From: Candidatus Micrarchaeota archaeon
GTDB lineage: Archaea > Micrarchaeota > Micrarchaeia > Norongarragalinales > UBA8480
DNA length: 64,000 nucleotides
Direction: 5' to 3'
NCBI GenBank assembly: GCA_023247085.1
Contig: JAHFHC010000002.1
Coordinates: forward strand, 24,395 to 88,394
Shown here in pieces: positions 44,862-57,178 of the stretch. A model generated the notes under the pieces. It had not been told where the DNA came from. It made no database searches and saw only the letters and a list, made by a program, of their open reading frames with translations. Position 1 is the first letter of the stretch. Every line of letters starts with the position of its first letter. The position numbers and the translations under genes were made by a program.

Positions 44862-45518
44862 TTGGTGGCAGTTAAATGCGTGATTTTTGACAATGATGAT
44901 ACGCTCTACTATGCGCCAGGCATAGGGAAAGAGGCAGTTGGTTACATGGTTGAATTTGCTGCAAGTGCTTTAAATATCTCAGTTGAAGACGCGGCGCTTG
45001 AACGTGTTAAAATAAAGCGAAAATATGGCGTTGACTCTACTCCCTTTGCTTTTAACCAAAAGTATGGAATTGATTTTGATGAAATGATAAATTTTGCATA
45101 TTCGCAAATTGAGCTAAAAAAATACGGGATTAGTAAAAATGATAGTTTAATCAAAACGTTGTCTGCATTAAAGGTTCCAAAATTTATATTAACAAATAAC
45201 ACTGCGGAATTCGCTTCACTAATATTGTCTGAATTGGGTGTTGCTAATTTATTTAAGCGCATTTTTGGCTGCCGTGAAGTAGATTTTAAACTTAAACCCG
45301 CGCCTGAAGCATATTTGCGTGTACTTAATTTTGCAAATGTAAATGCAAGTGAAGCGGTTATGGTAGACGATCGAGTTGATTTTCTCTTAGGCGCTGCTCA
45401 GTTGAGGATGCGCACTATATTATTCTCCCGCGACATGAGCTTTCATCCGCTTTGTGGCGTTGATTTTGTGATTCGAGATTTAAAAGAATTGCCGAAGTTA
45501 CTAAGTGAATTGAAATGA
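44862..45518 (+). CDS. HAD-superfamily hydrolase (nucleotidase-like)
   Basis: Motif I VIFDNDDTL, motif IV MVDDRVDFLLGA. Likely TTG/GTG start. Overlaps the next gene by 4 nt. Confidence 0.65.
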   Translation: MVAVKCVIFDNDDTLYYAPGIGKEAVGYMVEFAASALNISVEDAALERVKIKRKYGVDSTPFAFNQKYGIDFDEMINFAYSQIELKKYGISKNDSLIKTLSALKVPKFILTNNTAEFASLILSELGVANLFKRIFGCREVDFKLKPAPEAYLRVLNFANVNASEAVMVDDRVDFLLGAAQLRMRTILFSRDMSFHPLCGVDFVIRDLKELPKLLSELK

Positions 45519-46432
45519 AACGTAAATTAGTGATAATTGATACTGATCCAGGTCACGATGACGCTCTTGCTTTGATGCTTGCATTGCGAAGTAAAAAATT
45601 GCGAGTACTTGCGGTTACTACGGTAGCTGGAAATTCCACCATTCAAAATACGACTCGAAATGCCCGGTTTGTGCTTAAGTTGCTTGACGCGCAAAATATT
45701 CCAATTTATTCGGGCGCTTCAAAACCACTTTGTCGTAAATTAGTGAAGGCAGTTGTACATGGAAAGAATGGTTTATCTGGTTTAAAGTTTAAACAAAAAA
45801 GTAATTTAACCAATAACGCTGCCGAAAAGATAATCTCAATTGTTCAACAAAATGCTGGCGTGACTATAATTACTTTGGGTCCATTGACCAACTTAGCTCA
45901 AGCTATTTTGAAAAAGCCAAGTGTCATGTTGAAAGTGAAGAAATTTGTTATTATGGGTGGTGCGATTAAAGTTCCTGGAAATAAAAGTAGAGTGGCTGAG
46001 TTTAACTTTTTTGTTGATCCAGAGGCCGCGGATATAGTGTTTAAATTTCCAGTTGCAAAGATGCTCATTCCACTCGATGCAGGTAATCCTATTTTCCTAA
46101 AAAACTCGGATTTTCGTAAGATAAGGGGGTCACTGAAAAAACCAATATTGCAGCTTATGAATTCGTATATGGGAAATCTCTATAACTACATAAAGGTAAA
46201 ACGTGCGCTTATATATGACGCATTAGCGGTATATTCACTAATAAAGCCCAGCGCTTGTAGAAAAAAGCGATATAATATTGTAATAGAAACAAAAGGAGAA
46301 GCTACGCGTGGCATGTCAGTTACCGAGCTGAGGCAGTTCAAAAAAACGCTACCAAATGCAACTGTAGTTGAAAAAATTTCAGCAAACGCTTTTAAGCAGG
46401 CGTTTATAAATTCTCTTTCAAAAAGGGGATAA
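45515..46432 (+). CDS. Inosine-uridine preferring nucleoside hydrolase
   Basis: N-terminal fingerprint VIIDTDPGHDDALAL (DxDxxxDD). Confidence 0.85.
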   Translation: MKRKLVIIDTDPGHDDALALMLALRSKKLRVLAVTTVAGNSTIQNTTRNARFVLKLLDAQNIPIYSGASKPLCRKLVKAVVHGKNGLSGLKFKQKSNLTNNAAEKIISIVQQNAGVTIITLGPLTNLAQAILKKPSVMLKVKKFVIMGGAIKVPGNKSRVAEFNFFVDPEAADIVFKFPVAKMLIPLDAGNPIFLKNSDFRKIRGSLKKPILQLMNSYMGNLYNYIKVKRALIYDALAVYSLIKPSACRKKRYNIVIETKGEATRGMSVTELRQFKKTLPNATVVEKISANAFKQAFINSLSKRG

Positions 46433-46435
46433 CCA

Positions 46436-47209
46436 ATGCGTTTGAATTTACATCCATATTCAATTGAAGTTATTGAAAAACCCGGAAGTTTACCCCCTAG
46501 GCGTAGAGAAGTGCTTCTTCGCTCTGTTGTTCGAATAGCACAAGATGCATTTGGAAAAACAACTCGCGAAACCATGGAACGTCGTGTTTTACCGGCAGAT
46601 GAGATTTTGGTAGTAAGGAAGGGGCGTAGGATAATCGGCTACTCTTTAAATAGATATTTTAATTTGCCTACTGGAAGAATGCTTTACCTTTCTGGATCTG
46701 CAGTTGAAAAGCAACATGAAGGAAAAGGGCTTTACGGTGCATTGCGACCACTATCCATTCTATTAGCCTGTAGGGACAATCGTTTTTCACATATTGCGAC
46801 TAGAACCCAAAATCCAATAATATATGCTTCCCTTGCAAAACTTGGTCTTCATCCTATAGAAGGACGAAAAGTGCCAAAAGAAATAAGTACGGCTGCAATA
46901 CACTTAGCAGCTGAAATCAGTCCGGGCAAGGCGTTTGATTCTGCTTCTCTAGTTATAAAACAGGCATTTAGGGGATCAGCAAGTGTAGCTTCTCCAAAGC
47001 ATCACGATGAAAGATTCAATACCTTTGTTTCAACAAGAATAAATGAAGCGCAAGGCGACGCGTTGTTACAAGTGGGAATGCTGGACAGACGGAAAGCCCG
47101 AGTACTTTTCCTAACTGCAGCTGATAAAATAAGCAAAAAAACAGCTATAGACGCACAAAAATTAGTTGAGCGACTCACTGTTGTTGGTAAAAGTGCGTTT
47201 GATTCATAA
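46436..47209 (+). CDS. GNAT-fold acyltransferase-like protein (divergent)
   Basis: 257 aa. VVRKGRRIIGYSLNRYFNLPTGRMLYLSGSAVEKQHEGKGLYGAL...TRTQNP is a motif A/B-like arrangement. Confidence 0.4.
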   Translation: MRLNLHPYSIEVIEKPGSLPPRRREVLLRSVVRIAQDAFGKTTRETMERRVLPADEILVVRKGRRIIGYSLNRYFNLPTGRMLYLSGSAVEKQHEGKGLYGALRPLSILLACRDNRFSHIATRTQNPIIYASLAKLGLHPIEGRKVPKEISTAAIHLAAEISPGKAFDSASLVIKQAFRGSASVASPKHHDERFNTFVSTRINEAQGDALLQVGMLDRRKARVLFLTAADKISKKTAIDAQKLVERLTVVGKSAFDS

Positions 47210-47398
47210 ATGGCCTGCGAAGATATTCAGCGCCACACTATTCCGATAAATGCGTTTTTCGTGATTAGAAAAAAAGTAATTGCTTTTTTGAGCAATAAAT
47301 ATTTAAACTTGCCAACTGGCCTGTTATTCTACCTCGCAGGAACAAGTGTACATGCTGATTACGGGCGCGTTGGACTTTATAGTTTGCTGTCAGGTTAA
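47210..47398 (+). pseudogene. Truncated duplicate of the N-terminal core of 46436-47209
   Basis: 62-aa ORF. NKYLNLPTGLLFYLAGTSVHADYGRVGLYSLL parallels NRYFNLPTGRMLYLSGSAVEKQHEGKGLYGAL of the upstream gene and ends prematurely. Confidence 0.4.
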
Positions 47399-47493
47399 CC
47401 TCGAAAATTGAGGTGGCTTGTTGATGGTTGGTTTAATGGATCTTAGGAAAGCAGAGCAAGCTTTTCTCGCCGCTGCAGGGAAAGTAAGCTCAA

Positions 47494-48576
47494 TTGCCGC
47501 TGGCAAAATCGTTGAACAATTGCGACACTTGTGAAATAAAGGTATTTAATTGCGAGTTTGCTATTATTTCCAATATGCAAGAAGAGTCAATTACGCACAA
47601 GCGAGGAACTAGGCTTCACATTACTGAGCTTGATCCGGAAGATCCAAATTTTGAACACCACGTTGCTGATTCATGGAGAAACATAAAGGCTAGTTATCAG
47701 GAGTATCCCTATGTTGAAGTGGGAGATCCAGTGCATGTTAGGCGAGAAATAGCCGCTGGTCGGCTGAGGACTTTTCTAGTGCGTGAAGATAACCGAGTGG
47801 TTGGAACCGCAGCAATGGTTTCAAATGGTCCAGTCTGGGAATTCGGAAGATTGGCAGTTGACCCGAGCCACCGTGGAAAGGCTTACGGTCAAGCGCTTGT
47901 CTGGCACAGATTATCTGCGGCTGCAGGTGACCCGGTTTATACTACTGCACGCGCAGCTGAACCAGCCACTACGCATAATATCTTCAAGGCGTTTGCAACT
48001 ACGAAGGGCGGAGTGCATATCCTCGGCGTTGCGCCATATGCTTTGGTTAATCACAAACAAGAGTTTTTAATCGAGATGGGCGGAAATCTTGGAAAAGCAT
48101 CTGACTTCCAGCACCCGCGCTTTACCCCTGCAGAATGGGCTTTTCTCGGGCCATTTTTAAAAGGGCGGAGAACGGCATCATTTACTCACGTAAGGCCAAG
48201 CAATGTTAAAATTGGCGACATTGTAAAAGTTTCAGAGCACAGTAAATACGGCGTAGCTGAACCAATTGGAAACAAAGCAATTCGGGATGTAATAACCGCT
48301 GCACGGCGCAACTCGCTTGTAAACTTCTTAATGCTTCGCGTTCCGCTTAGAGACGAGCATTTGCCACTACGTGAAGCTTTGGTGCGTAATGGCTTTATTC
48401 CATCAGCAATTGGACCCAAGGGAAACTATATTATCTATGGCTTAGTCACGAAACCGAAACGCAAGGTAAAGCTAGGTGAAGTTAACCTACCAAGCAGCTT
48501 CGACGAGCCGCACGTTGCGCCAGTTAAAGATGCAATTATGAAAATAGTTGAAGCTTACCACGAGCAGCTAGCGTAA
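47494..48576 (+). CDS. Tandem GNAT-fold acyltransferase-like protein
   Basis: 360 aa (start possibly at the internal MQEES). VREDNRVVGTAAMVSNGPVWEFGRLAVDPSHRGKAYGQAL matches the acetyl-CoA binding motif A. A second GNAT-like half lies in the C-terminus. GC content is noticeably higher than in surrounding genes. Confidence 0.45.
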   Translation: MPLAKSLNNCDTCEIKVFNCEFAIISNMQEESITHKRGTRLHITELDPEDPNFEHHVADSWRNIKASYQEYPYVEVGDPVHVRREIAAGRLRTFLVREDNRVVGTAAMVSNGPVWEFGRLAVDPSHRGKAYGQALVWHRLSAAAGDPVYTTARAAEPATTHNIFKAFATTKGGVHILGVAPYALVNHKQEFLIEMGGNLGKASDFQHPRFTPAEWAFLGPFLKGRRTASFTHVRPSNVKIGDIVKVSEHSKYGVAEPIGNKAIRDVITAARRNSLVNFLMLRVPLRDEHLPLREALVRNGFIPSAIGPKGNYIIYGLVTKPKRKVKLGEVNLPSSFDEPHVAPVKDAIMKIVEAYHEQLA

Positions 48577-48585
48577 CTCGTGCTT

Positions 48586-49683
48586 TCAAATCTTTTTGCA
48601 CAGTTCAGTGTAGAACTGCTCAACTTGTCTCAATTGTTCTAGTTGCATTTTTTCGTCTGGAATGTGTAGTTTCATGTTACCTGCCCCTACGTTTATAGTT
48701 GGAATGCCTGCTTTTGAATAGTATCGCGCGTCGCTTGCGCCGAGCTTGTGCAAGTAGCCCGATATTGGTGTGCCGGTTACTTTTTCCAGCGTTGCCTGCG
48801 CGGTTTTGATAAATTCAGATTTTTCATCGCTAATCCAACCAGGCTCATTTTTTTGTATGTTTAATTTAACACTTTCTGGCAGTAGCTGCGTCAATTTTGC
48901 AGTGAATTTTTCTATTTTGATATCCGCAGGAAGCCTGAAGTCAATTGTTGCCTTGCATTGAAATGGAACTACGTTTTCAGCTGTTCCGCCTGAAATCAAC
49001 GTAGTGTTCATAGTTGGATGTGAAAAAACATATTCGTGATCGTGCGATTTCAGTTTAAACTCTTTTTCAAGCGCAACCAGCGCCGTTGCCATTGTATGCG
49101 CTGCATTTTTTGTATCTTGTGGGTAAGCCGCGTGCCCCCCTTTTCCCTCTGCAGTTAGTTCAATTTGCAACCGCGCCTTGTGTCCAGTTGCTAATTGCAT
49201 TGCAGTCGGCTCGCCGATAACTGCATAGTTTGCAGTTATTCCTTTTGCAATGGTTGCGCCTGTACCATTGTGGCCGCCAACTTCCTCGTCACCAACCGCG
49301 ATTAGTATAATCTCACTGCTTAGGTTTTGTTTTGAAATTGCAATTGCCGTGTTAATCATGGCGGCTAAATTACAAGTCATGTCACATGCACCCAAGCCCC
49401 ATAGTTCCCCTTTTTTCACAACTGGGTCAAACGGGTCAACAGTCCACTGATCAGATGGGGGTACGGTGTCATAGTGACCGTTTAGAATTATCTTTCGACT
49501 ATTTTCTTTTCGGCCTTTAGTTGAGCCTATTACGCTTACAACTCCATTGCTAGAAATTAGTTCAACGTGTAAATCGTTTTTTTCCAAGTAGGTTTTAATT
49601 AAGTCAACTGCCGCACTCTTATCTGCGCTACCTTCATACTTGTGTAGTTTAATTAATTCGCTTGAAAGTTCAATTGTTTTCAT
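48586..49683 (-). CDS. M20-family metallopeptidase/deacylase (ArgE/DapE-like)
   Basis: 365 aa. LNGHYDTVPP, GDEEVGG, GGHAAYPQ motifs. Confidence 0.8.
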   Translation of the reverse strand: MKTIELSSELIKLHKYEGSADKSAAVDLIKTYLEKNDLHVELISSNGVVSVIGSTKGRKENSRKIILNGHYDTVPPSDQWTVDPFDPVVKKGELWGLGACDMTCNLAAMINTAIAISKQNLSSEIILIAVGDEEVGGHNGTGATIAKGITANYAVIGEPTAMQLATGHKARLQIELTAEGKGGHAAYPQDTKNAAHTMATALVALEKEFKLKSHDHEYVFSHPTMNTTLISGGTAENVVPFQCKATIDFRLPADIKIEKFTAKLTQLLPESVKLNIQKNEPGWISDEKSEFIKTAQATLEKVTGTPISGYLHKLGASDARYYSKAGIPTINVGAGNMKLHIPDEKMQLEQLRQVEQFYTELCKKI

Positions 49684-49685
49684 TA

Positions 49686-50252
49686 TTACAACCGTCTTGC
49701 AAAATACTTGCGTTGAGTAATAGTGCTGCTAGCTACGCGCCCAGATCCACTGTGCTCAAATAACATTTTATACCCCATGCTCCTGGCTAGCTTTTCTCTT
49801 GCAGGATGAATTGTGCGCAGTGCAACCGAATCGTAACCTAACTTTTTACCGTATTCGTGCCTTGCCTCTGCAAGTTTTCGACCAATTCCTCTATTTTCAT
49901 GGTCAGGGTGAACTGCTACAAAGTCAAGGTAGTAAGTTTTTCCAAATGGCTTGAATGCAGCTTGGTGTTCTTTTGGCAAGTGCTCTCTTCCCCATTCGCG
50001 CATAAACTCACTAAATGCATGACTTCCACCAACGCCAATCACTTGGCCATTTTCCATAGCTATGAATATTTTCCCGTGTCGTTTTTTGTTATTCTCTCGA
50101 AAAACATTTTCAACAACACTTTCAATTGTCCACGGGTCATTATACATAGAACCGGGTCCGAAACGCTTTACAAATATTGCAGCCGCTTGGCTAGTTAATT
50201 TTCTATTTCGTAAATTCAATGCCTTTACTTCCATTTTCATCAACTTTTCCAC
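49686..50252 (-). CDS. GNAT-family N-acetyltransferase
   Basis: 188 aa. VAVHPDHENRGIGRKLAEA motif A. 3-nt spacing to the downstream M20 gene (operon). Confidence 0.7.
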   Translation of the reverse strand: MEKLMKMEVKALNLRNRKLTSQAAAIFVKRFGPGSMYNDPWTIESVVENVFRENNKKRHGKIFIAMENGQVIGVGGSHAFSEFMREWGREHLPKEHQAAFKPFGKTYYLDFVAVHPDHENRGIGRKLAEARHEYGKKLGYDSVALRTIHPAREKLARSMGYKMLFEHSGSGRVASSTITQRKYFARRL

Positions 50253-50470
50253 AGGGTAAATTCTTTTGCCTTGTTATATTTTTAACTTTTTAACGAAACG
50301 TTTTTATTTAACCCTTTGGACAAATAGTAGGTCATGAAAGTTAACGCTATTGTGGAAATGCTAGTAGCATATACCCTTAGCTTAAGCGCTTTCATTACAA
50401 CCTTCTGGCATATGCTTTTGGGCATTCGAGCCGGGATTTTGAGATAAACTCTTTATAACTTTCTCAAAAG

Positions 50471-51520
50471 GTGCCTGCTATGAATGCTTTAATTATACCT
50501 ACTACTTGCAAGTTGAATTGCGCTGCTAGCGTAGAAAATGCAAAAATTACGTTTGCAGCTTCGCGTGCGGTTTCTTCCCTTAAAGGTATGCAATTGGAAT
50601 CCATAGATAGTTTTGAAGCTGGGCAGTTAGTTGCAGTTAAGGTTGTTAGAAATAACAGCGGAAAACTTATTCGACTAAACGATTTAAGCACTTATGCTCC
50701 CATTGCTGGCGATGTTTTAGTTTGTCTAATTGGTGCAAATGGCTCGTTTAAAATTGAAGTTATAACTGTGCCAACTGCTGTCAATGAATGGGTGGTGGTT
50801 AATCGTGGCGGTTTAGTTGGCCAACCCATGTTTGATGTCGGTGAGTCGAGTTTAGTTGTCAGTTACCTTGGAAACCTTGTCAAAGACAATATGCCGGTTA
50901 AATTAACTGACAAATTGCCTGCAGAATACAAGTTTTATAAGCCAATAATTGCAGTGGTGGGCACTGACACTAATACTGGCAAGACGGTTACGACCGCTAA
51001 AGTGATCAGCGAGCTCAAGCAAATGGGGTTATCTGTAGGTGCTTGCAAATTAACGGGCATATGTGGAGACGATATATTATCTTACAAAGATGCTGGCGCA
51101 GATGAACTCGTTGATTTTACTGATGCGGGTTTACCTTCTACAATTTGTACTGAAGAAACTGCAGTTAATGCCGCATTAAAATGCATATCTAGTTTACAAA
51201 ACAACGACGTTATAGTTGCGGAATTTGGATCTACGTTGATTGGCGGTCACCCTGTGTTATCGATATTGAAAGCTTTTAATTTAAGTAATTTGAAAGTAGT
51301 TGTTTGTTGTTCGGACGTACCTGGAGCAATAGGTGCAATGTTTTTGCTTGCAAGTGGAGCAAATGGCTTGAGGCCTTCACTATTTTCAGGGCTAGTTGCA
51401 AATAGCGAGCTAGCTTGTGCTAAGGTGTTAGAAACTACTGGCGTGCCATGTGCTTCTGCTGCTAAATTCCTTTTGCGTACAATGATTTTTCAAGGTGTTA
51501 CAAATGTTGAATTGTGTTGA
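50471..51520 (+). CDS. DUF1611-like protein: N-terminal CoA-binding-like domain plus BioD/MinD-like P-loop domain
   Basis: 349 aa. P-loop IIAVVGTDTNTGKTVTTAKV resembles the BioD GTDTxVGKT motif. Confidence 0.45.
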   Translation: MPAMNALIIPTTCKLNCAASVENAKITFAASRAVSSLKGMQLESIDSFEAGQLVAVKVVRNNSGKLIRLNDLSTYAPIAGDVLVCLIGANGSFKIEVITVPTAVNEWVVVNRGGLVGQPMFDVGESSLVVSYLGNLVKDNMPVKLTDKLPAEYKFYKPIIAVVGTDTNTGKTVTTAKVISELKQMGLSVGACKLTGICGDDILSYKDAGADELVDFTDAGLPSTICTEETAVNAALKCISSLQNNDVIVAEFGSTLIGGHPVLSILKAFNLSNLKVVVCCSDVPGAIGAMFLLASGANGLRPSLFSGLVANSELACAKVLETTGVPCASAAKFLLRTMIFQGVTNVELC

Positions 51521-52592
51521 ACTTGCTAAGCAACTGGCAGCTATTCCTAGTTTTCAAGGTAATCGTGAGGTTTCTTTGTTTTTGAAAAATTACTTGGAAA
51601 AAGAAGGTATTTCTGTTCAAGTTATTGAAAAAAATAATGTACTGAATGTAGTTGCGCGTACTGGAAAGCGGGACGGCAGATCCCTATTGTTAAACGGTCA
51701 CACTGATACTGTTCCACCTCAACTTGGTTCGCAAATGCCAGTAAGTACAATTCGAGATGGAAAGCTCTTTGGCTTAGGCACCGTTGACATGAAGGCAGGA
51801 GCAGCTGCAATGACTTGCGCTTTTCTTGAACTAGCTAAAAAAGAAACTGAGCTTAATGGCGAAGTGATTTTAGTCCTTGTTGGAGATGAAGAAAATGGCG
51901 GAGCAAATGGAACAAAAGCAACACTAGAGGTGGGGGTTAAAGCAGATTACGTAGTTATAGGCGAACCAACTAATCTTAAAATTTGCCTTGGACAGAAAAG
52001 CGCATTGCAATTAGAAATAAGCGCTAATGGCAACGCACGCCACGCAAGTCGAATAAGGCCAGATGACAATGCAGTGTCTAAAGTTACAAATGTGCTGTAC
52101 TCATTAGAAAAAGCTTTTCCAGTTCCAGTCGGGCCAGATGACTTCTTGTTCAATAAAACAACTATGAATATAGGTACTGTCTTTGGAGGTACTGCTGCAA
52201 ATGTAGTTCCAGATAAATGTACGGCTACTATTGACTTTAGATTTTCTCCATTGTCTTCCAAAGAAGAGTTAACCAATCAAATTATGACTAATTTAAATGA
52301 AGCCATAACTGTAAAAGAGAGGTTTACTGCGCTTGGCTGGTCACTTGATAAAAACACGCCTTATTGTCGTGCGCTTGTTTCTACAATGAAAAAAGTTGGA
52401 ATCAAAGAAGAATTTGTTTACAAATTTGGTTCAAATGATGCTAGATTCTATAATGCAGAAGGTTGCCAAGTCGTTAATATTGGCCCTGGAAATAATTTAC
52501 TTTCACATACGGGCAAAGAAGAAGTCGAAGTAAATCAAATAGAACAAGCTAAGCAAGTATATTTGAAGCTAGCGCAAGAGTTATTAAAATAA
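51495..52592 (+). CDS. M20-family metallopeptidase/deacylase (paralog of 48586-49683)
   Basis: 365 aa. LNGHTDTVPP, VGDEENGG motifs. Overlaps the upstream gene by 26 nt. Confidence 0.8.
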   Translation: MLQMLNCVELAKQLAAIPSFQGNREVSLFLKNYLEKEGISVQVIEKNNVLNVVARTGKRDGRSLLLNGHTDTVPPQLGSQMPVSTIRDGKLFGLGTVDMKAGAAAMTCAFLELAKKETELNGEVILVLVGDEENGGANGTKATLEVGVKADYVVIGEPTNLKICLGQKSALQLEISANGNARHASRIRPDDNAVSKVTNVLYSLEKAFPVPVGPDDFLFNKTTMNIGTVFGGTAANVVPDKCTATIDFRFSPLSSKEELTNQIMTNLNEAITVKERFTALGWSLDKNTPYCRALVSTMKKVGIKEEFVYKFGSNDARFYNAEGCQVVNIGPGNNLLSHTGKEEVEVNQIEQAKQVYLKLAQELLK

Positions 52593-52608
52593 GTCGAGTA
52601 AGTAAATT

Positions 52609-54240
52609 ATGACATCTGTAAAAGTGCCACGAAGGGGATTTGGAAAAATACAATTACTTTCTGCCGAAGCTATGTTTGGACAAAATGGAATTTGGCACGC
52701 AAAAGATACTGCGGAGCTCTCTGCAGCAATGGCTACTCACAAAGATGCACTACAAGAACTTCATCGCCAGCCACACTTATCTCCTGCGGTTAAAGATAAA
52801 TTAACTGAAGCGCTTCGTTATTCTGCTCACGGGCAAGCGATTCCTCCGCATATTGCATCTCAATTAGTTTCAATGCTTAATAGCGCAGCGTTTAGAACAG
52901 CAGGTAGTTCAACTATGCAGTGGACTGCGTGGACAGCTTCAAGAAACCCCAAAGCGCCCGCAATTTCAGTAAAGAAATCTCCAGTTCCGGTGGTGTCTAC
53001 TTTACCGCAAGCAGATGTTTATGTTCAACTTGGTAATAAGCTTTTTAGAACTTTGAGAAGTACAACTCGCAAAGTTTCTTCTGCAGTTGTTGGCGCAATT
53101 GACGAAGCAAGGCGGCGCCATCCAAAAGCAACTGTAGATGAACTTAGAGAACTAGCCGCAACTGTAGCAAGCGAGGGGGTTTTTGCACCTTCTAGAACAA
53201 AAGCTCTTACAAAAGTCGACTACAAATTTGTAAAAGGGCCAAAAGGCAAAGTCCGAGCTGCGATTATAGATGTTAGTTCTGAATTACTTGGGCTTGGTTT
53301 TTCTGATGATATTTTGAAAAGTTATAAATTGCAATCCGGCTTATCTAAGAGTTTAGCTGGTGCATTTTTACAAATAGATGCACAAGAGCGAAAGAAGCTT
53401 CCAAAGAACGTTGCAATTATGGTGCGTGACAACCAACTTGCTGGCCAGTTTAAGGGAGATATTGAATCGCTTAGAGGGCACCTTGAGGCAATACTTAGGG
53501 AACATCACGGCAAAGCCGGTGGAGATGTTGAAGTAAGTGTAGTGCTTCAACCGAATGTTCAAAAACGTGCAGAAAATATCCCGAGAGCCGCAGCGCATGG
53601 CGTTCCGTTTACTGGTTTAAAAGTACAGCGAGTAGGTGATGGTAAAAGCGTTTCTCCTGAATTAATCATACGCTATGGCCGGTTCCCGTTATCTACTGAG
53701 GCAGATGCTGAGCTTGAAAAACAAGGAGTAAAAGTTTTAGATCATAGTGATTTCGTTATTGCTGCAGATAAAACCGTTAATGGCCGCGTCACTAATTTGC
53801 TTAAGCTAGAGCCGATGAGTGCTTCTACTGTTTTTGTACCGCGCAATGCCGTTTCTCAAAATAGTTTGTTTTCAACTGCTTCTGACAAAGAACTTGATGC
53901 AATATTGGAGCGAGCTAAAGTTGAGAATTGGAGCGGGGTAGTAGTTAAACTTCCAACAAAATTAACACTAGGCAAAACTGGCCAAGAGGCAGTCACTGCA
54001 CATTTCGTTAACCCGCATTCGCCCCTTCAAGTAGATGCATTGAGAAAAGCTATTCGAGATATACGTTTTGATGCAAGTGCTGCACCTGACGCTGAAAAGA
54101 AAAAAGCAAAATTAGCATTCGAGGAATTAGCAGTTTCAAGCCTCCCCGAATTAGGTGGCAGGGGTTTAGAACTAAGAACACTTGCAATGCCTAGATTTAA
54201 AGTGTCAAAAATAACCACAATAGTTGAACCTAATCACTAA
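52609..54240 (+). CDS. Large hypothetical soluble protein (no recognisable motifs)
   Basis: 543-aa ORF, last gene of the 50471-54240 operon. No TM segments or known signatures. Confidence 0.4.
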   Translation: MTSVKVPRRGFGKIQLLSAEAMFGQNGIWHAKDTAELSAAMATHKDALQELHRQPHLSPAVKDKLTEALRYSAHGQAIPPHIASQLVSMLNSAAFRTAGSSTMQWTAWTASRNPKAPAISVKKSPVPVVSTLPQADVYVQLGNKLFRTLRSTTRKVSSAVVGAIDEARRRHPKATVDELRELAATVASEGVFAPSRTKALTKVDYKFVKGPKGKVRAAIIDVSSELLGLGFSDDILKSYKLQSGLSKSLAGAFLQIDAQERKKLPKNVAIMVRDNQLAGQFKGDIESLRGHLEAILREHHGKAGGDVEVSVVLQPNVQKRAENIPRAAAHGVPFTGLKVQRVGDGKSVSPELIIRYGRFPLSTEADAELEKQGVKVLDHSDFVIAADKTVNGRVTNLLKLEPMSASTVFVPRNAVSQNSLFSTASDKELDAILERAKVENWSGVVVKLPTKLTLGKTGQEAVTAHFVNPHSPLQVDALRKAIRDIRFDASAAPDAEKKKAKLAFEELAVSSLPELGGRGLELRTLAMPRFKVSKITTIVEPNH

Positions 54241-56311
54241 GAAACATTTTATGTAGGGTAGTATCATTTGTCGATGTTTTTCCGCTTGTAATGCTCTTAA
54301 TTTCTTGTTTAGATCGCTTTGCGTAATCCTCAACGGTCTTTATTCCTGCGTTGTATAGTTTTCTTCCTCGTACTCTTCCAATTCCGCGTATTGTGCAAAT
54401 GTCAAGTAACTCTTCTTTTATTCCGTGTTTTATGCGTCGGCGTAAACGTTTTGCTTCTTGATAAACACTTGTTTGATTTTCAAGAAATGCAAGTTCGCGC
54501 AATGCGTAGCAAAGCCATTCGGCGTTTCGCTTGCGTGTTAGCAGCATTCCTGGTGGGGTTTCAAAATCTGTAAGCATTTGTTCTTCAGTTGCTTCATTAA
54601 TCCAGCCGTTTAGCACTTTAGCTGTTTTGAATTTGTCTAAAGCTTCGGCATCCCACGCTGGAAAATCTTCTAGCAAGTTATACGCGTCGTCCCACAGTGT
54701 TTTTTCTTCACCTTTTTTTACGTATATAAGTGGACGCATTTCAGTTGCTTCACAAATCGCATAAAGATAGTCAATTGTTTGCCTGGGGATTTGTTTTTTG
54801 ATAAACGAGAGGAACTTCGCGCCTGTCAAAGGGTCTATGTATAATTGTGCTATTCGCCTACCAACAGGCGTAGCTGCCAAACGGCCACTTTTTTCTCGAA
54901 TAAAGTCAAACTCTTTTAACTCTCCACAAATGCGGTCAATAACTCCCGCTAGTTGACCGCGGTCACCGTATTGGAACGCGTAGAATGTAGAGTCAAAGAA
55001 CTTGTGTAATTCCTCTATTGTTGAAACATAGTTTGAAGAAATAAGCGAAAGAGAATGAAAGCGAATAGCAGTTTCATTTGCGAGTTTACTGTACAAGTCC
55101 TCTGGTTTTCCGTAAACGTACTTCTCCCACACTTCCCCAACATCTTTTTTACTGCTTAACATAACTCCGATTCCAACATCGTCGTAATTTGGCCTACCGC
55201 TTCTACCTAACATTTGTTGTACTTCCATTGCAGGTATAAATTCTGAAAAGTTGCCATTAAACCGCTTTAAATCTTTTACAATCACCCATGTAGCCGGATA
55301 ATCAATGCCCATTGCAAGTGTAGTTGTACACACAATTGCCTTAATTGTCTTTTCGTGTTTGAACCCATCTTCAATTAATTGACGTTGTTTTGGTGTAATT
55401 CCAGCATGGTGAAACGCAACTCCATTTGCCATGCACGCAGAAAGCTCTTTGCACTGGGTTGTTGGAGTTGGCAACGCTTTCAAGGCGCGTTTACTCATAT
55501 CCGCCAGTTGCGCTTCGTCCCCCTGCTGCAAAAACTTCTTTGTAATTGCGCCAAGTTCACGCGCAGTTGACTCAGCGCCACGCCTGCTAGCTACAAAAAC
55601 CAGCGCTTGCCCATTTTGTTTAAATCGCAATGCGTTTTCCAACACGTCGTGCAATTGTTTTTTATCACTTACTTGAATGCTTGCTAATGCATTGTCTTTA
55701 AACTGCACTTCTTTTTCACTGCTAACCCCAACAATTAACTTCGTTGGTCTATACTCGCTGTAAAACAACTTTGCATTTAGCCACTCGGCCATTTCACTTG
55801 CATTTGGAATAGTTGCGCTTAACCCAAGCAGCTTTTTTTTAGCAAGATGAAGCTTCGTCATAACGACTTCCAGCGTTGCGCCACGTTGATCATCGCCAAT
55901 CAAGTGGCACTCGTCGAACACAACTGCGTTGATTTCCTCCATAAACTGTGGCGAATGTGTCAAAATTGAATCCAGCTTCTCGGAAGTTAAAATCGCAACA
56001 TTGGCGTCACCGATCTTTTCATCATCGCTATCTAACTCTCCAGTTGAAATCCCGACTTTCAATTCAAAAACAGCCAACTTTTTAGTAAATTCATTATACT
56101 TTTCACTTGCCAATGCACGCAACGGAACAACATACAGCGTCTTCTTACCATGTTCAAAATGATTTAAGATCCATAACAACGACACAAGCGTCTTTCCACT
56201 AGCAGTAGGTGAACTAAGCACAGCTCGGTCACTTTCAAATAAACCCTCTTGCGCTACTTTGTTTTGCATTTCGTTTAGCTTAGAATAGCCAAGCTTTGCC
56301 AAATTTTCCAT
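54230..56311 (-). CDS. hel308: Hel308/Hjm-like Ski2-family DNA helicase
   Basis: SF2 motifs: Ia LYVVPLRALASEK, II VFDECHLIGD (DECH), III LGLSATIPNA. C-terminal HhH GIGRVRGRKLYNAGIKT. Confidence 0.8.
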   Translation of the reverse strand: MENLAKLGYSKLNEMQNKVAQEGLFESDRAVLSSPTASGKTLVSLLWILNHFEHGKKTLYVVPLRALASEKYNEFTKKLAVFELKVGISTGELDSDDEKIGDANVAILTSEKLDSILTHSPQFMEEINAVVFDECHLIGDDQRGATLEVVMTKLHLAKKKLLGLSATIPNASEMAEWLNAKLFYSEYRPTKLIVGVSSEKEVQFKDNALASIQVSDKKQLHDVLENALRFKQNGQALVFVASRRGAESTARELGAITKKFLQQGDEAQLADMSKRALKALPTPTTQCKELSACMANGVAFHHAGITPKQRQLIEDGFKHEKTIKAIVCTTTLAMGIDYPATWVIVKDLKRFNGNFSEFIPAMEVQQMLGRSGRPNYDDVGIGVMLSSKKDVGEVWEKYVYGKPEDLYSKLANETAIRFHSLSLISSNYVSTIEELHKFFDSTFYAFQYGDRGQLAGVIDRICGELKEFDFIREKSGRLAATPVGRRIAQLYIDPLTGAKFLSFIKKQIPRQTIDYLYAICEATEMRPLIYVKKGEEKTLWDDAYNLLEDFPAWDAEALDKFKTAKVLNGWINEATEEQMLTDFETPPGMLLTRKRNAEWLCYALRELAFLENQTSVYQEAKRLRRRIKHGIKEELLDICTIRGIGRVRGRKLYNAGIKTVEDYAKRSKQEIKSITSGKTSTNDTTLHKMFLSD

Positions 56312-56751
56312 TATAATAATTTGTCGCGGTAGAGTTTTAGAAAGTATGGCATTGTAGAAATAACTGGTTCTGGCATTGAATTGAGGTCAAACCAGCCAAA
56401 ATCTTCAAACTTGTGCGGCTCTCCGTTTCTCGCTTTTTCCCTATCGACCAGCACTTTGAAATCCAAAGCAACCCAGTGAGTTTTCTTTCCATTATCCACT
56501 CTGTGCACATCTCTATAGCCTAAAAATTCGTACCCAATTACATCTGTGCAGTATTCTTCTTTAATTTCTTTTTTCAAACAATCCTCTATCTTTTGCCCAA
56601 AATCCAGCGCACCGCCGCCAATGTCCCAGCGTCCATGTTCATCTCTACAATTTTGACTACGCTTAGCCATGATGAATTTGCCTTTACCATCGTGACAAAA
56701 GTAAACAATTGCAACGCCAACATAATCAAAACCTTTTTTTGCTTCGCTCAT
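56311..56751 (-). CDS. NUDIX hydrolase (paralog 1)
   Basis: 146 aa. Nudix box GGGALDFGQKIEDCLKKEIKEEYC. Confidence 0.6.
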   Translation of the reverse strand: MSEAKKGFDYVGVAIVYFCHDGKGKFIMAKRSQNCRDEHGRWDIGGGALDFGQKIEDCLKKEIKEEYCTDVIGYEFLGYRDVHRVDNGKKTHWVALDFKVLVDREKARNGEPHKFEDFGWFDLNSMPEPVISTMPYFLKLYRDKLL

Positions 56752-57178
56752 TTTAACTTATCTCCATATTGTTTGAAAAACTTCGGAAACTGAGAATGAA
56801 TATTCTTTGGCAAATTATCGAGCGTAAACCATTTTATTTCGTTGAACTTATGTGGCTCACCATTAGAAACTGTTTTTGGATCAACTAAACACTTAAAGTA
56901 AAGCGCAATCCAATGTGTTTTCTTTCCCTCATGCTCGCGGTGTACATCGCCATAACCAAGAAATTCATGCTTCAAAACTTCTGTGCAATACTCTTCCTTA
57001 ATTTCTTGTTTTAACCGATCAATAATAGCGTCTCCAAACTCAACTGCACCGCCACCAATATCCCAATTGCCATGTTCATCGCGGCAATTCTTGCTGCGTA
57101 ACCCCATCAAAAAACGGCCATTCCCATCATGGCAAAAGAAAGAACTGTAACGCCTACATGATCAAAACCTTTTTGCAT
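56748..57178 (-). pseudogene. NUDIX hydrolase paralog 2, interrupted by a frameshift at a homopolymer
   Basis: The upstream piece MQKGFDHVGVTVLSFAMMGMAVF (57178..57107) and the downstream piece LMGLRSKNCRDEHGNWDIGGG... (57110..56748) align to consecutive parts of paralog 1. The frames meet at an A6 run (57109-57114). A single-base insertion would restore a full-length protein. Confidence 0.5.

Follow-up and report, generated by a model that had tools for sequence, protein, structure and literature searches.

Here we describe a gene cluster in a 64-kb stretch of a Candidatus Micrarchaeota genome (contig JAHFHC010000002.1; hereafter the window) that carries two M20 deacylases, a P-loop protein, GNAT acetyltransferases and a protein of 543 amino acids (aa). 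In the initial annotation, these genes were read as one compact block of enzymes that make and break N-acyl and peptide bonds, and every open reading frame (ORF) that it listed was recovered at the same coordinates. As a single unit the block does not hold, with the GNAT genes, the 257-aa gene and the genes for the HAD hydrolase and the nucleoside hydrolase all absent from related loci. The block is instead two things, a conserved four-cistron operon on the plus strand and a lineage-specific insertion (Table 1). The core of the operon runs from the 37-codon ORF through the P-loop gene and M20b to the 543-aa gene. Domain calls were made by Pfam and NCBIfam scans of the window proteins against the family cut-offs.

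Table 1 Features of the operon and the adjoining insertion, with positions counted from the first nucleotide of the window
Feature	Position	Strand	Basis or remark
TATA-like box GTTTTTATTTAA	50300..50311	+	Probable operon promoter, predicted function
Small ORF, 37 codons	50334..50447	+	Hydrophobic peptide, first cistron, unannotated
P-loop protein, 346 aa (349 aa if started at GTG 50471)	50480..51520	+	Predicted N-acyltransferase-like enzyme
M20b, ArgE/DapE-type M20 metallo-deacylase	51504..52592 (longest ORF from 51495)	+	Pfam/NCBIfam
Predicted ATP-grasp amide ligase, 543 aa, eukaryotic glutathione-synthetase/GspS fold	52609..54240	+	Model and Foldseek
M20a, second ArgE/DapE-type deacylase	48586..49683	-	Pfam/NCBIfam; recurrent accessory neighbour
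GNAT188 acetyltransferase, 184 aa (188 aa if started at GTG 50252)	49686..50240	-	Acetyltransf_1; this genome only
HAD hydrolase, nucleoside hydrolase, 257-aa unknown, GNAT-domain protein	44862..48576	+	Rest of the insertion, outside the conserved operon

Conservation of the operon and its small first cistron

Contig look-ups and tblastn recovered the P-loop gene, M20b and the 543-aa gene in the same order and spacing at loci L002, L003, L004 and L091. In a further genome the unit is split over two contig ends (L095 and L001), and it is present in part at L089 and L090. These loci represent five Micrarchaeota lineages, which share gene order and spacing at 46-64% protein identity, and no related locus of sufficient length lacks the unit. 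Because it recurs with the same order and spacing, the operon is likely to be more than a chance arrangement. The co-occurrence in other genomes on which the initial annotation had staked its case is thereby confirmed, as is its view of a conserved, uncharacterised set of amide-bond making and breaking enzymes; what survives of its block of N-acyl/peptide-bond enzymes is the conserved operon, not the full gene list. A protein search with the broad alignment A2 returned the five known proteins again and no further ones.

The details of the arrangement are kept as well. The P-loop gene and M20b overlap by 17 nucleotides (nt) in L002, L003 and L095 and by 20 nt in L004, and the ligase gene starts 7-20 nt past M20b across the loci. 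The operon is unchanged while its flanks vary, with GNAT188 upstream in the window, a NUDIX gene in L002 and L095, and other genes in L003 and L004. In the most divergent lineage, L004 (~46% identity), both flanks differ and an FG-GAP protein takes the place of the helicase beside the operon, and the unit is still intact. The neighbouring helicase is otherwise syntenic at the related loci, where it is 72-81% identical. The taxonomic placement draws on these helicases together with the NCBI labels of proteins P0004 and P0009.

Upstream of the P-loop gene, the alignment revealed a GTTTTTAT box (window position 50300) that is invariant in the five lineages. The ATG of the small ORF follows this box by ~28 nt, and its position is conserved. 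Such a spacing is that expected of a leaderless archaeal mRNA, and judged from the sequence the box is probably the operon promoter. The product of the small ORF in the window, MKVNAIVEMLVAYTLSLSAFITTFWHMLLGIRAGILR, is a hydrophobic peptide of 37 aa. ORFs of 35-40 codons occupy the equivalent position in L095 (9853-9966), L002 (970-1083), L003 (5589-5711), L004 (7372-7479), L091 and L096. Common to these ORFs are an MKA-type start, a hydrophobic core and the motif (F/I/S)WHM(L/P)(L/N)GI(Q/R)A, the codons of which vary synonymously (CAT/CAC, TTG/TTA, GCC/GCT), while the C-termini are not conserved (GILR, TLR, MTQ or LAF). The peptide resembles a transmembrane helix without conserved clusters of Asp, Glu, Lys, Ser or Thr. 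A spacer of 32-38 nt with a Shine-Dalgarno (SD)-like GGAGG or GGTG separates the small ORF from the P-loop ATG, and the small ORF stays with the operon though the upstream neighbour changes between lineages. It is listed in none of the gene-caller outputs for these loci, and the initial annotation, whose plus-strand genes are all real, likewise overlooked this first cistron.

A 10-bp nested hairpin, CUGGC/AUGCY...GGCAU/GCCRG, could also form within the 3' part of the small ORF (50405-50434); it is retained in four sequences through wobble-compatible changes only, a number too small (n=4) to carry statistical weight. A second hairpin (50461-50475) is predicted to pair a pyrimidine run with the SD-like sequence (GGAGG/GGTG) preceding the P-loop ATG. 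An Rfam search of the intergenic region gave no credible match. The coding and the hairpin readings of the conserved stretch are not mutually exclusive.

The enzymes of the operon

The 543-aa protein belongs to a very small family. Only four relatives, with 46-62% identity, were found in a set of 5.8 billion clustered proteins (one is labelled Candidatus Micrarchaeota), and these, together with its retention in the operon across lineages, establish that the ORF is conserved. When 1.84 billion representatives were searched exhaustively with a profile, no more than 20 proteins reached E 0.001 or better. The initial annotation had found no detectable motifs in the protein, which is true of sequence profiles: none of the 20 family members matched the GSH_synth_ATP or GSP_synth Pfam profiles at E up to 5, and a PDB sequence search with the family gave no match. 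A match to DUF1932 (E 0.009) was dismissed as noise.

Structure prediction, however, revealed a glutathione-synthetase-like ATP-grasp fold. With the five close sequences only, AlphaFold2 gave an unusable model (predicted local distance difference test score, pLDDT, of 55); this was remedied by the 20-sequence alignment including the distant relatives, which yielded a pLDDT of 89.7 and a predicted template modelling (pTM) score of 0.89. The top Foldseek matches of this model in the PDB were 8fbz, 2hgs and 1m0w (E 6e-9 to 6e-7, probability 1.0), followed by 3n6x, 3k1t and 2io7 (E. coli glutathionylspermidine synthetase). The top matches form one coherent family, comprising human and yeast glutathione synthetase, soybean homoglutathione synthetase and nematode glutathione-synthetase-like effectors, with E 6e-9 to 6e-4, probabilities of 0.99-1.0 and 370-480 aligned columns at 10-14% identity and TM-scores of 0.3-0.44. 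The human, yeast, soybean and nematode members, along with 3n6x and 2io7, were matched at E 5.8e-9 to 1e-5 and probability 1.0. Matches to NisB/MibB and glutamate dehydrogenase were dismissed for their low TM-scores or probability.

With the glutathione synthetase/GspS-like ligases 2HGS, 1M0W, 2IO7 and 3N6X, the window ligase shares the fold over ~400-450 aligned positions and, if the model is followed, would share ATP-dependent carboxylate-amine ligation via an acyl phosphate. It differs from them in sequence (10-14% identity, TM-scores of 0.32-0.44, no Pfam or PDB sequence match) and is ~70 aa longer. The 20-sequence alignment (33% mean identity) conserves D204, D221, K388, K447, E521 and R523, and the family also keeps a PELGGxG loop; the conserved charged residues and the loop are compatible with an active ATP-grasp site. 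The model thus shows the 543-aa protein to be a new sequence family with the predicted ATP-grasp fold of the eukaryotic glutathione synthetases, and it points to ATP-dependent amide-ligase activity.

A distant ligase homolog of 474 aa was observed in another archaeon (L093, 153-2573), in a tight operon of NUDIX, ligase and HAD-hydrolase genes. The presence of NUDIX and HAD genes near both this homolog and the window block could hint at a nucleotide-linked substrate or be a coincidence. In the window, the 3' ends of the ligase gene and the convergent Hel308-type helicase gene overlap by 11 nt (54230-54240; 4 nt in L001), so that no terminator would fit between them. Beyond the helicase, at 56311-57110, stand two NUDIX paralogs in tandem (146 and 120 aa, overlapping by 4 nt).

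The P-loop protein consists of an N-terminal beta-rich domain and a BioD/MobB/DUF1611-like P-loop domain with the Walker A motif GTDTNTGKT. Its start is most likely ATG 50480, which gives the 346-aa length of the 100%-identical protein P0006 and is preceded by an SD-like GGTG and a TTTATAA box. Invariant in 26 family members are K193, T195, G196, D201, F216-x-D218-A-G220, D246 and E251. The initial annotation had called the protein DUF1611-like; the Walker A motif it noted is present, but the matches to DUF1611, MobB and BioD are all below the cut-offs and cover only ~35 residues around Walker A. The DUF1611 (PF07755) P-loop-domain model scored 20.9 bits against a cut-off of 25, over residues 157-191 only. 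Weak similarity to this domain was seen in 22 of the 26 family members (best E 2.6e-6), and the DUF1611 N-terminal domain in none of them at E up to 0.1. The BioD model TIGR00347 scored 22.5 bits against a cut-off of 83.3, which does not make the protein a full-length member. PDB profile matches were to BioD (E 3e-5, ~50 residues), MobB and signal recognition particle (SRP) GTPases, and they cover Walker A and the K-x-TG strand.

Among the 277 detectable relatives of the P-loop protein, most are unannotated proteins of ~350 aa from bacterial metagenomes. It also matches proteins encoded in bacterial arginine operons, at E 3.6e-21 to 1e-17 with 25-33% identity and 81-90% coverage. A neighbour-joining tree separates three clades, namely Micrarchaeota, arg-type and type II. 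The Micrarchaeota clade lies outside the arg-type clade, at a mean distance of 0.83 compared to 0.47 within the latter. Type II proteins have ~360-420 aa and a GNRYAPDQFEAEVP motif; in Thiosocius teredinicola (CP019936.1, L008 7001-11927), the type II gene stands with an ABC exporter gene, followed by three genes for proteins without a Pfam domain.

The arg-type proteins are widespread, with at least 510 hits in a scan of species-representative genomes, mainly of Gemmatimonadota and Acidobacteriota. A tblastn census covered 84 loci (L009-L088 and L005-L007 being the bacterial loci). The P-loop gene was found in 84/84 loci, with argC adjacent in 82, and wherever the flanking sequence suffices (41 loci) its place is between argG and argC. 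In 38-41 of these, the complete order argG, P-loop gene, argC, argD, argF', argB, M20, argH, argR was recovered. The argF' products scored 421-441 bits on the N-acetylornithine carbamoyltransferase model (cut-off 288), and where the Xanthomonas enzyme has E92, 56 of the 59 detected have Val and 3 have Ala, residues of the succinyl type. No other candidate for the acylating step (a GNAT or an ArgJ cluster) recurs in these bacterial arg loci.

This pattern matches a recent prediction by GapMind, in which ACG33_RS14135 is an alternative N-succinylglutamate synthase (GapMind 2026, bioRxiv 10.1101/2024.10.14.618325). The family of ACG33_RS14135 is virtually always found in arg operons and never alongside ArgA, position 92 of the accompanying argF' is mostly A, P, S or V, and ACG33_RS14135 is a remote Foldseek homolog of the D-glutamate acetyltransferase DgcN (7XRJ, E 1.4e-7) (bioRxiv 10.1101/2024.10.14.618325). 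Our arg-type clade fits the GapMind family, to which we liken it by operon context and argF' type, not by sequence. The census lends independent support to the GapMind prediction and appears to widen its range to at least 510 species-level genomes.

The window P-loop protein shares with the arg-type proteins the two-domain layout, the invariant motifs and homology over the full length. Consequently, the 'ATPase of unknown role' of the initial annotation keeps its P-loop, but its role is recast by homology to a family of predicted N-succinylglutamate synthases, and the protein is probably not a plain ATPase. The contexts differ. The GapMind-type genes stand in an arg operon with a succinyl-type argF' and an M20 gene, whereas the window gene belongs to a separate clade outside any arg operon and has an M20 deacylase and an ATP-grasp ligase as partners. 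Transfer of the substrate from the arg-type proteins is weak, because the Micrarchaeota P-loop proteins form a clade of their own. DgcN itself (Yu et al. 2023, ISME J 17:537) likewise has a P-loop fold, acylates the amino group of glutamate and acts upstream of a deacetylase. In contrast to DgcN, the window protein scores below the Pfam cut-off, has no DUF1611 N-terminal domain and no sequence match to 7XRJ. Furthermore, the partner in the DgcN system is a racemase and that in the window a ligase.

Both M20 genes of the initial annotation proved to be genuine paralogs. M20a and M20b have 365 aa each and are ~35-37% identical to each other; they scored 109 and 111 bits, respectively, on Peptidase_M20 (cut-off 24.6), and both contain M20_dimer. 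Both keep the H/D/EE/E/H set of metal and catalytic residues intact. The best subfamily model was TIGR01910, with 199 bits for M20a and 205 bits for M20b against a cut-off of 217.6, and both paralogs remained below every cut-off for an equivalog-level assignment (ArgE, DapE, LysK etc.). The overlap of M20b with the P-loop gene had been given as 26 nt, counted from the longest-ORF start. The overlap is real and amounts to 17 nt from ATG 51504, the start used by the gene callers and all orthologs. An ortholog of M20a (65% identical) lies convergently just downstream of the ligase gene in L002, L089 and L090, and none was found at L003, L004 and L001.

The lineage-specific insertion

Compared to the collinear genome L095+L001, the window contains an insertion of six genes (44862-50240) between the NUDIX gene and the operon, which was seen only in this genome. 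The two genomes otherwise share the order Rce1-like, TsaD, Sua5, kinase, EamA, NUDIX (minus strand), operon and helicase (minus strand). The inserted genes encode the HAD hydrolase, the nucleoside hydrolase, the 257-aa protein, GNAT360, M20a and GNAT188. Only M20a recurs elsewhere, beside the operon of one further lineage; for the other five, no counterpart was found in any related locus. The GC content of the window peaks within the insertion, at 48-50 kb (0.44), and the insertion may be acquired DNA.

GNAT188 was correctly called on the minus strand (49686-50252 in its longest form; Acetyltransf_1, 47.8 bits, cut-off 20.7). It does adjoin M20a, at a gap of 2 nt (49684-49685) rather than 3 nt. 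The genes just upstream (46436-48576) had also been described as GNAT-like. This is correct for GNAT360 (47494-48576), whose GNAT domain is confined to the N-terminal half (38 bits), and not for the 257-aa ORF (46436-47209), which matched nothing in Pfam, NCBIfam or PDB sequences. The latter is packed with the genes for the HAD hydrolase and the inosine-uridine nucleoside hydrolase (44862-47209; one 4-nt overlap, one 3-nt gap) and for this reason looks tied to nucleotide or nucleoside salvage and not to the acyl enzymes.

A proposed pathway and its competitors

The operon represents a small-molecule pathway that we leave unassigned, built from enzymes of known kinds, i.e., an ATP-grasp ligase, an M20 deacylase and a P-loop protein resembling DgcN and the alternative ArgA. 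No other pathway genes travel with the P-loop, M20b and ligase genes. Because they overlap translationally, the acyltransferase-like protein and the deacylase more likely bracket a pathway than form a futile cycle. The most likely product of the operon is a small amino-acid conjugate, formed by way of an N-acylated intermediate, and we tentatively favor a family of schemes in which acylation, ligation and deacylation follow each other.

In such a scheme, the P-loop enzyme would move a succinyl or acetyl group from acyl-CoA onto the alpha-amino group of glutamate or a similar amino acid, a step modelled by analogy on the activity of DgcN and the predicted activity of the arg-operon relatives. 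The ligase would then use ATP to activate a carboxylate of the N-blocked acid as an acyl phosphate and join it to an amine, for which an amino acid, a polyamine or ammonia are candidates. The N-block would stop the activated intermediate from cyclising on itself; N-blocking is the classical means against cyclisation of an activated glutamyl carboxylate in arginine biosynthesis. Finally, M20b would strip the acyl group and free the product. Alternatively, the end product might remain N-acylated, with M20b as a turnover enzyme, as in the metabolism of N-acetylglutaminylglutamine amide (NAGGN). M20a, and in this genome GNAT188, may be accessory enzymes of the same chemistry.

Two known systems have a comparable logic. 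In the NAGGN operon PA3459-PA3461, an acyltransferase, a peptide ligase and a metallopeptidase are encoded in one operon (PMC8070244). This operon (asnO-ngg-PA3461; PMC8070244) resembles ours in encoding N-acylation, peptide-bond formation and a metallopeptidase together. The enzymes are not homologous, with a GNAT fusion in place of the window P-loop protein and an M42 in place of the M20 peptidase, and NAGGN has an AsnO-type amidotransferase that the window operon lacks. In the LysW/ArgW carrier pathway, an ATP-grasp ligase (LysX) and an M20 enzyme (LysK) bracket a route that protects the alpha-amino group. In contrast to this pathway, the window is without LysZ/LysY/LysJ-type genes, the small ORF has no acidic LysW-like C-terminus, M20b falls far short of the 363-bit cut-off for the [LysW]-lysine hydrolase model (144 bits), and the ligase is a glutathione-synthetase-type and not a RimK-type enzyme.

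Several observations weigh against the acylation-ligation-deacylation scheme. Sequence searches for DgcN/7XRJ or other DUF1611 structures gave no match, and the Micrarchaeota clade is about as far from the arg-type as from the type II proteins. The P-loop protein retains an intact Walker A, BioD-like lysine and Walker-B-like DVIVAE, with which an ATP-dependent reaction is equally compatible. The five lineages are close relatives, and the conservation of the operon may partly be inherited synteny, as the helicase is conserved too. Lastly, the distant ligase homologs (L092, L093, L094) have no P-loop or M20 neighbours.

The intact nucleotide site leads to the strongest competitor, in which the P-loop protein is a true NTP-dependent enzyme, either a BioD-like amide or ureido ligase or a MobB-like metal-loading chaperone for the M20 enzyme, and not an acyl-CoA transferase. 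The sole PDB sequence matches, to BioD (E 3e-5), MobB and SRP GTPases, would agree with this, as would the invariant Walker A lysine and threonine and the acidic Walker-B-like motif, and a translational overlap with a metalloenzyme suits a partner or chaperone. We nevertheless regard it as unlikely, given that the bacterial family fills exactly the gap of a missing N-acylglutamate synthase and that GapMind reported Foldseek similarity to the acetyltransferase DgcN. Moreover, ATP-dependent N-acylation from a free acid would still suit the scheme that we favor.

A somewhat less probable explanation splits the operon by function. The P-loop protein and M20b would be the ArgA-like and ArgE-like ends of an N-acyl route to arginine or ornithine with its other genes elsewhere, and the ligase and the small ORF would be unrelated. 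The nearest P-loop relatives outside Micrarchaeota are indeed arg-operon proteins, M20b is ArgE/DapE-like, and genes for Trp synthase, indole-3-glycerol-phosphate synthase (IGPS) and DAHP synthase lie nearby in L003. However, no homolog of argB, C, D, F, G, H or R was found in the 64-kb window or the related archaeal loci, the ligase stays attached to M20b in every lineage, and the P-loop clade is separate from the arg-type.

The small ORF raises the idea of a peptide-directed system, in which its 37-aa product would be the substrate or scaffold modified by the ligase, the P-loop protein and the M20 enzyme in the style of peptides made on the ribosome and modified after translation (RiPPs) or of peptide tagging. 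ATP-grasp ligases are known to act on small gene-encoded peptides, e.g., RimK on S6, LysX on LysW and the ligases of graspetides, and here the small ORF heads the operon in all five lineages with its WHMLLGIQA-like motif conserved. On the other hand, the peptide is hydrophobic and helix-like, lacks conserved Asp/Glu/Lys/Ser/Thr clusters and varies at its C-terminus; the substrates of glutathione-synthetase-type ligases are small molecules, and an RNA hairpin may account for part of the conservation. Together, these points leave a peptide-directed system improbable. A chance or purely inherited cluster of housekeeping paralogs without a common pathway would fit the confinement of its carriers to one narrow Micrarchaeota group, the syntenic helicase and the solitary distant ligase homologs, but it is very improbable, as the overlapping or near-abutting frames, the small ORF and the promoter box are kept while the flanking genes change.

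A more specific version of the acylation-ligation-deacylation scheme is speculative and itself rather unlikely. Here, the operon would provide an archaeal pathway, hitherto unknown, for a gamma-glutamyl-type amide or dipeptide, such as a low-molecular-weight thiol precursor or an osmolyte, through DgcN-like N-acylation by transient succinyl or acetyl transfer to glutamate, ATP-grasp coupling in place of ArgB-type activation, and unblocking by M20b. The 37-aa product, as a membrane peptide, might tether or regulate the enzyme complex.

The genomes of DPANN archaea such as Micrarchaeota are very small, and these organisms are generally regarded as relying on hosts for most metabolites. Because it is tightly conserved and biosynthetic-looking in a reduced genome, the operon likely makes something that these archaea are unable to obtain. 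With its modelled ligase, the glutathione-synthetase-like ATP-grasp ligases gain a new and very rare sequence family, and its first cistron is a conserved micro-ORF; the phylogenetic spread of the operon is narrow. The P-loop family of the predicted alternative ArgA had so far been linked to arginine operons, and one of its branches now proves to be used outside arginine synthesis. This provides a second, independent context in which the chemistry of the alternative-ArgA family can be tested.

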